From: a virus
Taxonomy: Duplodnaviria; Heunggongvirae; Uroviricota; Caudoviricetes
DNA length: 8,111 bases
Virus record (IMG/VR): IMGVR_UViG_2563366830_000002
Reading direction: 5' to 3' (one strand)
Shown: positions 5,925-6,344 of the stretch, in pieces
How the letters are laid out: every line of letters starts with the position of its first letter
Position numbering within the stretch: the first letter of the stretch is position 1
Position numbers and translations under genes: made by a program
Notes under the pieces: model-generated
Databases searched by the model: none
What the model was told of the DNA's origin: nothing
The model's input: only the letters and a program-made list of their open reading frames with translations

Positions 5925-6344
5925 ATGAAGACAATTGATATGTTGGCTAAGTATCTAAATGAATGGCCATTAAAATATTCTCGTATCGTTCAGGCTGAAG
6001 ACTGCATTTTTTATGGCGTTTTTGCTGGTAATGAAATGCATTACGAAGTAATTCAGAGTGAGGGACTGGCCGGGTTAACTCTTAGCGAAGACCATGGTAC
6101 TAGCGTTACGTTCCATGACTGGATAACAGCACAACGTTCTGAAATGGAAAAAGGCGATGTTTTTGATATTTCTCGCGCTGTTTACGCTAAAGCAAAAAGT
6201 GATAATGATTACATGAGCGAACACTTATACAACATGAAGTTACAATGCCTGCATGCGGCGCTTATTCAGAATGGGCACTTCGATAAAACAAGTGCCATCA
6301 ATATTGCGGAAGCCATCAACGCTGGATTTAATGCCATTAAGTAA
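5925..6344 (+). CDS. Hypothetical protein (139 aa), low-GC accessory (moron) gene of unknown function
   Basis: ORF track. SD AGGTG 5 nt upstream of ATG; own terminator downstream. First 60 nt contain 18 G+C (30%) by my count versus 28/60 (47%) in a sampled capsid-gene stretch (1501..1560). Orientation is opposite to all structural genes. No recognisable motif, no obvious signal peptide or TM segment. Confidence 0.7.
   Translation: MKTIDMLAKYLNEWPLKYSRIVQAEDCIFYGVFAGNEMHYEVIQSEGLAGLTLSEDHGTSVTFHDWITAQRSEMEKGDVFDISRAVYAKAKSDNDYMSEHLYNMKLQCLHAALIQNGHFDKTSAINIAEAINAGFNAIK

Follow-up and report, generated by a model that had tools for sequence, protein, structure and literature searches.

The stretch of DNA analyzed here (the window) is the 8,111-nucleotide (nt) IMG/VR virus record IMGVR_UViG_2563366830_000002, which comes from an epsilon15/phiV10-like prophage (genus Uetakevirus) of Escherichia coli. 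All of its large open reading frames (ORFs) lie on the minus strand and make up the head-gene block of an epsilon15/phiV10-like podovirus. Between the gene of the large terminase subunit (terL) and the homologue of gp3 there is a gap of 1.2 kb, which holds two features on the plus strand, a tRNA-Arg gene with the anticodon TCT and an ORF of 139 amino acids (aa) at 5925-6344. This ORF is placed between the genes of the large terminase and the portal, antisense to both. We analyzed the sequence, the predicted structure and the genomic neighbourhood of the ORF and its relatives, and we find that it is one allele of an exchangeable cassette and suggest it as a candidate gene for the evasion of bacterial immunity.

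The 139-aa ORF

The ORF at 5925-6344 is a real gene, because it matches the family phrog_4846 along its whole length (residues 1-139 align with positions 1-139 of a 140-position profile, expectation value (E) 2.2e-89), has ~100 homologue clusters at 55-99% identity in Escherichia, Salmonella, Citrobacter, Klebsiella and Leclercia (Enterobacteriaceae) and shows ratios of nonsynonymous to synonymous change (dN/dS) that are mostly 0.1-0.5, with dS up to ~3, among 15 distinct homologous loci (Nei-Gojobori). It is under purifying selection, and the complete reading frame is conserved in hundreds of contigs, which belong to several genera. DNA matches were found in 117 of 5,426 complete E. coli genomes, in every case on the chromosome, and the RefSeq entry for the protein (WP_000848284.1) carries the name 'hypothetical protein'.

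The initial annotation of this DNA, made from the letters alone, had described the ORF as a gene of low guanine-plus-cytosine (GC) content and opposite orientation, with a good Shine-Dalgarno sequence (SD) and a terminator of its own, and each of these features is borne out. The ORF as a whole has a GC content of 39.8%, with 30.0% in its initial 60 nt and 37.9% at the third position of codons (GC3), against 54.3% in terL, 51.7% in the portal gene, 49.7% in the major capsid gene and 57% in gp3, where GC3 is 51-61%. The ORF is oriented opposite to all flanking structural genes, and its SD and the hairpin with T-run behind it are given in Table 1. The same annotation saw neither a signal peptide nor a transmembrane segment, in agreement with our analysis, in which no membrane segment, signal peptide or other hydrophobic segment was present in the protein (maximum Kyte-Doolittle mean over 19 residues 0.54). 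The isoelectric point (pI) of the protein is 5.2.

A cassette slot with exchangeable genes

The site of the ORF is occupied by other genes in phiV10, epsilon15 and SPN9TCW. The exchangeable part spans ~5929-6335 and lies between conserved flanks. In BLAST comparisons the homology to loci that carry a Tad2-like gene breaks at 5928 and resumes at 6336, and the homology to phiV10, which carries an Acb4-like gene, breaks at 5925 and resumes at 6342. At the left border a terminator-like hairpin, its T-run and the SD are kept up to the start codon before different genes, as can be seen from an intergenic alignment that took in PAS61, phiV10, epsilon15, SPN9TCW and other loci. Among 133 such hairpin-SD junctions the stem of the hairpin has compensatory variants (GCCCAC/GTGGGC and others) in front of different cargo genes. 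The right border is formed by a 12-bp palindrome, followed by the terminator of the cargo gene, which has compensatory variants behind different cargo genes and is an annotated terminator in phiV10. Exact copies of the palindrome are found three times (at 6447, 20425 and 22876, each at a gene end; 0.07 expected) in the prophage beside guaA in E. coli MS 196-1 (locus L003), to which positions 1-8019 of the window are 99.9% identical, and the palindrome might serve for protein binding or mark a recombination boundary.

IMG/VR was scanned for the hairpin-SD junction and the ORF behind the junction was translated in 120 loci. The commonest occupant is an Acb4-like gene of the phiV10p03 / epsilon15 gp50 type (64 of the 120 loci), followed by the family of the 139-aa protein (32/120, 27%), which is a mosaic of small modules (A to F, described below). 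The mosaic proteins comprise 17 of the A-C form, nine of C alone, three of B-C and one each of A-C-D, D alone and A'-D, where A' is an A-like variant domain; every member of the family that was sampled, the B-C and A-C-D forms included, sits in this same slot. A Tad2-like protein of 98 aa is found in two loci (L034 and L037), other small proteins of ~10 kinds in 16, and no ORF or a very short one in six.

With respect to function, phiV10p03 matches PF13876 (E 6e-35), the profile of the Acb4-like proteins of the slot matches PDB 9E4W, 'anti-CBASS 4 (Acb4)' (E 3.5e-6), and the 98-aa cargo matches PF11195, 'Thoeris anti-defense 2-like' (E 3e-24). The cyclic-oligonucleotide sponges of the Acb4 type make up PF13876, and the Tad2 sponges make up PF11195 (bioRxiv 10.1101/2024.12.30.630793; 10.1101/2025.07.12.664507). 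Acb4- and Tad2-family genes together account for 66 of the 120 loci, and every slot occupant that can be assigned to a functionally characterised family belongs to one of these two counter-defence families. The two Tad2 loci are especially close to the window, with protein identities of 99% for terL, 99% for the portal and 100% for gp3, because of which they can be regarded as effectively the same phage with a different cassette.

The remaining occupants are diverse. One protein of 86-88 aa (..GGYYVQY..SPAEAFESGY) matches the phrog_9467 profile, as does the Acb4-family protein phiV10p03, with match positions that differ between the two (22-63 and 98-149, respectively); this suggests that members of phrog_9467 may fuse the 86-88-aa domain to an Acb4 domain. 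Others are a Cys-rich protein of 143-147 aa (phrog_18493), a protein of 110 aa (phrog_27507), a protein of 138-168 aa with a transmembrane segment (phrog_11227), which is present in SPN9TCW too, and single occupants of 60, 91, 97 and 140 aa. By analogy with their slot-mates, the uncharacterised occupants (in L019, L048, L129 and other loci) are candidate anti-defence genes. In two loci with a 123-aa B-C allele (L008 and L009) a second plus-strand gene of 303 aa (6630-7541; phrog_35327 / phrog_13369) stands before terL, and therefore the slot can hold more than one gene. The published neaT morons belong to another slot.

Modular build of the protein

The structure of the 139-aa protein was predicted with AlphaFold2 from a curated alignment of 42 sequences (model m162ed2e69924, mean predicted local distance difference test score (pLDDT) 84.2); an initial run with a mixed alignment (pLDDT 61) was set aside and all results given here are from the 42-sequence run. 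The model shows two predicted domains joined by a linker (Table 1). Module A is predicted to consist of the elements H3-10, E18-23, E29-33, E36-42, E60-62 and H63-75 (H, helix; E, strand), has a pI of 4.7 and includes the conserved residues W14, P15, R20, F29, Y30, G31, G50, D56, G58 and W66. The linker varies in length and sequence across the alignments. Module C, which by alignment takes up residues ~90-139, is common to the 123-aa B-C proteins and also makes up, by itself, 61-aa proteins of this slot. Few basic residues of the family are conserved (K2, R20 and K105).

Relatives of the protein are built by exchange of such units. Module B is an N-terminal unit unrelated to A, which replaces A in relatives and is joined to C in the 123-aa proteins. 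Module D is a C-terminal unit of 47 residues (KPLIKWL..N.NPHA...), and further units, E and F, are present in longer proteins. The architectures found are A-C (this gene), B-C, C alone (61 aa), A-C-D (201-204 aa), A-C-B-D (258 aa), B-D, D alone and longer combinations of E, B, F and D. None of the modules is a Pfam family. Module D is mostly found as a stand-alone protein of 52-82 aa across the Enterobacterales. In lambdoid prophages of Citrobacter and relatives (L135-L137, position 4001-4159) it stands alone (52 aa) in the PL early-left operon, flanked by N/Ral on one side and Kil/Gam on the other. In Klebsiella prophages a variant of 61 aa is encoded between the small terminase gene and the lysis genes. 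On the best-supported interpretation, modules A and C are independent functional units.

A further observation concerns the 139-aa protein and its 140-aa variants in E. coli, which are near-identical up to a KLQCL motif, after which the C-termini diverge for ~30 codons (window 6240-6341; ...HAALIQNGHFDKT... and ...AEVLGKKAIVDKQ...). This switch points to recombination inside module C.

Searches for known relatives gave little beyond the family itself. The whole 139-aa protein had no match in Pfam (E up to 1), NCBIfam or PADLOC (E up to 1), where no model of a defence protein was matched, and the separate modules had none in Pfam at E up to 10. Among PDB sequences the single sequence had no match, and the best match of the profile was a nitrile hydratase at E 0.7, which we regard as noise. 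A profile search of 1.84 billion cluster representatives returned just 29 clusters, each of which belongs to this family or to one of its modules. The known sponge families were also compared directly. For Acb4 (PF13876) there was no match to the 139-aa protein in Pfam (E up to 1) or among PDB sequences, and hhalign of the family profile with the Acb4 profile of the slot gave a probability of 0.1%. For Tad2 (PF11195) neither the whole protein nor the separate modules gave a match, the 98-aa cargo of the slot serving as the positive control, and for Sequestin (PF21825) neither the C module nor the stand-alone C proteins gave one at E up to 10. A confident match to a housekeeping or structural family, which the initial annotation had named as an outcome that would speak against its view of the gene, was looked for in family, PDB-sequence and fold searches and was not found. 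The sequence, profile and predicted-structure checks that it had recommended returned no informative match, the fold of the 139-aa protein included.

In the literature nothing was found on phrog_4846 or WP_000848284, and five sequence motifs of the mosaic family (from modules A, B and C) are absent from six text files of the supplementary material of Tal et al. The mosaic family, its modular build and the exact cassette slot thus appear to be undescribed, whereas the occurrence of anti-defence genes in variable phage loci is, as a kind, already known.

The probable transcription unit of the ORF

No sigma-70-like promoter was called by the promoter scan in 5000-6600, and neither the scan nor the alignment of relatives gave a promoter between the tRNA gene and the ORF. 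The sole conserved promoter-like element is located ~600 nt upstream; its -35 hexamer is perfect and its -10 hexamer has just three of six matches, hence it was not called by the scan. Its TTGACA and ATTACC are invariant in eight aligned relatives, and TTGACA together with the operator described below is found upstream of 80 of the 133 junctions. The initial annotation had seen the ORF as the cargo of an island and as an independently expressed moron. The first part of this view agrees with the exchange of the gene as accessory cargo, while independent expression does not fit a gene without an adjacent promoter and with a terminator-like hairpin before its SD.

The -10 region of the promoter-like element is overlapped by a palindromic operator. 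In the 40-kb prophage locus of MS 196-1 the motif TTACC-N5-GGTAA has 16 copies, against 0.64 expected; 14 of them are intergenic, and they include copies in the cI/cro divergent region and at a PL-like promoter. Copies are also found at the start of the small terminase gene (terS), near the tailspike gene and near antirepressor genes. In epsilon15 there are 15 copies, against 0.5 expected, and these coincide with every binding site that is labelled 'repressor' in the GenBank entry, the site of the slot included. The dispersed and almost always intergenic position of the copies implies a putative P1-like regulon of many repressor-controlled units. The helix-turn-helix (HTH) repressor of the prophage matches the solved repressor 5D50 (E 3.5e-42), which we take to be the repressor of the epsilon15-like Salmonella phage SPC32H (presumably the one in Kim et al., PNAS 2016). 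Because the operator overlaps the sole conserved promoter-like element upstream, the unit of leader, tRNA and cargo is probably repressed in the lysogen and expressed early in lytic growth.

Downstream of the operator the plus strand carries a conserved leader. RNAalifold gives 32 base pairs for it, of which five have compensatory changes, and many G-U pairs are valid on the plus strand only. No Rfam family was matched. From this fold the leader is probably a structured RNA of the same transcription unit, and it may be a new one; a role in cis-antitermination or processing is speculation. The tRNA-Arg gene that follows is found upstream of 67 of the 133 junctions, which is about half of them. 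Just past the tRNA gene there is a first terminator-like hairpin and, abutting the SD, a second one. Between the two hairpins lies a near-invariant block of ~55 nt (CTTTTTACAGCAGGACGCCATTGCGATGACTTCATGCTGTAAACC, 5806-5862, plus strand) with a possible 9-bp stem (TTTACAGCA/TGCTGTAAA), which is kept in epsilon15 and SPN9TCW where the neighbouring sequence differs; a promoter consensus is not evident in it.

The adjacent tRNA-Arg(UCU) shares a transcription unit with the cargo, and a link between the two was considered. The cargo and structural genes have zero or one AGA/AGG codon each, the ORF itself has neither AGA nor AGG and the structural genes have almost none, so this link was rejected. 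A minus-strand ORF at 5657-5908 (83 aa; PhiV10p04 in the phiV10 annotation) was also rejected, since it lies antisense to the tRNA and the terminator region and is almost certainly not a gene.

Table 1. Positions of the ORF, its modules and signals and the neighbouring genes in the window
Feature	Position	Strand	Remarks
139-aa ORF	5925-6344	+	ATG start, 139 codons and stop; member of phrog_4846
Module A, residues 1-75	5925-6149	+	Predicted acidic alpha/beta domain; pLDDT 87-95
Linker, residues 76-92	6150-6200	+	Block-mean pLDDT 53-61; below 50 at residues 77-80
Module C, residues 93-139	6201-6341	+	Predicted helical hairpin, H93-116 and H121-137
Shine-Dalgarno AAGGTGAG	5914-5921	+	3 nt before ATG; kept ahead of every cargo type
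Terminator-like hairpin 2, GCCCGGTTCGCCGGGC then ATTTTTT	5891-5913	+	Terminator scan; left border of the cassette, abuts SD
12-bp palindrome GTGACATGTCAC	6349-6360	strandless	Right border; invariant behind four different cargo types
Cargo-gene terminator, hairpin AGCCAGCCGATGAGCTGGCT then TTGTTTTAT	6365-6393	+	Terminator scan
Promoter-like element	5292-5328	+	TTGACA 5292-5297, 17 nt, TACCCT 5315-5320
Palindromic operator TTACCCTTCAGGTAA (TTACC-N5-GGTAA)	5314-5328		Overlaps the -10 region of the promoter-like element
Conserved leader RNA, ~180 nt	5408-5590	+	Kept in 22 diverse loci, some of which lack the tRNA gene
tRNA-Arg, anticodon TCT	5651-5727	+	ARAGORN; Rfam RF00005 at 73 bits
Terminator-like hairpin 1, 14-bp stem then CTTTTT	5771-5812	+	Terminator scan, RNA fold, conserved
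Terminase large subunit (terL)	6435-7910	-	
gp3 homologue	5017-5223	-	68 aa
Portal	3323-5002	-	
Bbp19-like protein		-	
Scaffold/protease	2350-3033	-	
Major capsid protein	1349-2341	-	
Bbp16-type cement protein	860-1297	-	

At the end of the window the alignment with the intact prophage is collinear up to 8019, a point within the expected position of terS, and the final 96 nt (8016-8111) are 99% identical to the left end of an insertion sequence (IS) of the IS3 family (L003 12871-12966). An IS insertion in the small terminase gene of the window's prophage is therefore probable, and with it a defect in packaging. Further IS3 copies are found in other genes of the related prophage of MS 196-1.

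Possible function and alternative explanations

The explanation that fits our data best is that the 139-aa ORF encodes a modular counter-defence (immune-evasion) accessory protein of a new family, to which, by analogy with its slot-mates, we would give a probability of about one half. The ORF is a good candidate for immune evasion because the slot of sister phages holds families that disarm bacterial immune signalling. The ORF is one of the alleles that fill a single-gene slot between terL and the portal gene in temperate phages of the epsilon15 type. According to this model it would be the cargo of a plus-strand unit in which a repressor-controlled promoter-like element, a structured leader, tRNA-Arg, two terminator-like hairpins, the cargo and a terminator follow one another. 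The unit would be silent in the lysogen and be turned on early after infection or induction, and the protein, as a fusion of two separately exchangeable small modules, one acidic alpha/beta (A) and one a helical hairpin (C), would neutralise a component or a signal of a host anti-phage system, as expected of the Acb4 and Tad2 slot-mates.

The support for this model is circumstantial but specific, and consists of the positional allelism, the near-isogenic swaps, a shuffling of domains like that of the sponges and the architecture of a putative repressor-controlled early promoter. We also count for it the position of module D beside N, Ral, Kil and Gam in the lambdoid early-left operon, and the fact that the protein is small, soluble, of low GC content and of narrow taxonomic range (29 clusters). 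Several points weigh on the other side. The argument rests on position and the function would be assigned by analogy; the slot also holds membrane proteins and other uncharacterised ones, so that its occupants need not all be anti-defence proteins; and in the family, PDB and profile searches no known anti-defence protein resembled this one in sequence or fold. The family is acidic with few conserved basic residues, which is a poor fit to the positively charged pockets of sponges. The timing of expression, too, is inferred, from an element whose weak -10 hexamer escaped the promoter scan. The terminator-like hairpins after the tRNA gene and before the SD would restrict expression in the absence of read-through or antitermination, and a stoichiometric inhibitor would need it to be high.

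A different possibility, which we consider unlikely, is that the ORF encodes an early accessory protein unrelated to immunity, for example one for host take-over, for the modulation of a host enzyme or regulator, or one that helps in the lytic-lysogenic decision. The protein has no similarity to any anti-defence protein, the early accessory regions of temperate phages hold kil and cIII-like genes too, and several other occupants of the slot have no assigned function, all of which would suit such a role. What argues for counter-defence instead is that all occupants assigned to characterised families, in more than half of the loci, are counter-defence proteins, and that rapid module shuffling and cassette swapping are the pattern expected of an arms race.

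A narrower version of the counter-defence model is that the protein is a sponge for a nucleotide immune signal, which would form a homo-oligomer through the helical hairpin with pockets between the protomers. Two sponge families occupy the same cassette slot, the modules are small and either fused or stand-alone, in keeping with the size and fusion behaviour described for sponges, and the C module alone is ~61 aa long and predicted to be helical, like the described Sequestin. Tad2, Acb4 and Sequestin are reported to be often fused to one another (Tal et al. 2025, bioRxiv 10.1101/2025.07.12.664507). We nevertheless find a sponge improbable, given that searches of the modules against PF21825, PF11195 and PF13876 stayed empty up to E 10, that the hhalign comparison with Acb4 was negative, that the five family motifs do not occur in the six text files of Tal et al. 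mentioned above and that positively charged pockets are hard to reconcile with an acidic protein with few conserved basic residues.

The initial annotation had listed superinfection exclusion, anti-defence and defence together as frequent roles of genes in such a position. Anti-defence has gained circumstantial support from the Acb4 and Tad2 slot-mates, and a lysogen-borne exclusion or defence function is weakened by the operator overlap. A moron of lysogenic conversion or defence would be expressed from the prophage and protect the lysogen, for example through superinfection exclusion or abortive infection. The low GC content, the orientation opposite to the late operon, the terminator and the variable presence among related phages are what one would expect of it, and the intact state of the gene in IS-riddled, probably defective prophages could point to a benefit for the host. 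Such a lysogen-protecting role seems less likely because of the operator that overlaps the upstream promoter-like element and the lack of a PADLOC match. The protein, moreover, has no membrane segment or signal peptide, the gene has no adjacent promoter and the identified slot-mates belong to anti-defence, not defence, families, so that we regard this role as quite improbable.

Finally, a spurious or decaying ORF could be imagined in a prophage that looks defective, with an IS starting at 8016-8019 in the expected terS position, but this is hardly credible and is effectively refuted by the homologues and a dN/dS well below 1 at dS up to ~3, by a frame kept in hundreds of contigs of several genera, by the conserved SD and junctions and by a confident AlphaFold2 model (pLDDT 84).

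If the counter-defence model is taken further, modules A, C, B and D could be new, structurally unprecedented immune-evasion domains that are shuffled by phages, and the terminase-portal cassette of Uetakevirus could be a repressor-controlled 'plug-in' site, with the dozen or so other occupants also serving in counter-defence and with the structured leader gating read-through of the two terminators. This wider picture is tentative, and we think it doubtful that it holds as a whole.

The slot is of practical interest as well. Anti-defence proteins have mostly been found by chance or in costly screens. The slot described here is sharply bounded, takes a single gene and is carried by enterobacterial temperate phages of a common group; since characterised families of immune-signal sponges account for over half of its alleles, each of the others is a ranked candidate. 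If the 139-aa protein does inhibit a defence system, it would represent a new fold and possibly a new mechanism, and it would be a case in which one gene recombines very small domains and thereby broadens evasion. The flanks, being conserved, are ready homology arms for isogenic cassette swaps, which makes the question directly testable. The ORF is thus a concrete and cheaply testable lead, not a demonstrated discovery.

Comparison with known systems

The family to which the ORF itself belongs, phrog_4846 (PHROGs v4), carries no functional information, and comparison has to be made with systems of similar position or build. Classical morons and prophage hotspots (e.g. the P2 moron positions, PMC3573123) resemble the ORF in lower GC content, in orientation antisense to late genes, in the terminator and in presence or absence among relatives. 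A moron in the sense of Hendrix has its own promoter and terminator, whereas here the terminator is present, the promoter is absent and a hairpin with T-run abuts the SD. The atypical composition of such morons and their absence from close relatives do apply to the ORF (GC 39.8% against 50-57%; other genes in phiV10, epsilon15 and SPN9TCW). Unlike classical morons, the ORF appears to be part of a repressor-controlled unit with a leader RNA and a tRNA, and the slot is a precise one-gene replacement cassette, not an insertion.

Sequestin (PF21825) has short helical modules, which stand alone or are joined to small anti-defence domains, and both Tad2-Acb4 and Sequestin fusions have been reported (bioRxiv 10.1101/2025.07.12.664507). 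The predicted C module of ~50-60 aa is likewise helical and either stand-alone or fused. The modules of the 139-aa protein differ from Sequestin in having no PF21825 match (E up to 10), and the R/E/Q/R pocket residues of Sequestin are not evident in them. Sequestin is a short, helical, antiparallel homodimer with basic pockets at its interface; the predicted hairpin of the C module has ~47 residues, and conserved basic residues are scarce.

Two systems share the position itself. A Tad2-like gene (PF11195) replaces the 139-aa ORF in near-isogenic phages whose flanking proteins are 99-100% identical, although the 139-aa protein has a different architecture and no PF11195 match. Acb4 (PF13876, Phage_gp49_66; PDB 9E4W) differs from the 139-aa protein in sequence and profile, and also in the predicted fold, which here consists of two modules and a linker. 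Like the ORF, it is a small, soluble, single-gene cargo, and in phiV10, epsilon15 and the 64 IMG/VR loci it lies in the same slot, with the same hairpin-SD junction before it and the same palindrome and terminator behind it. The ORF shares its locus with characterised anti-defence families, as would be expected of a counter-defence gene.

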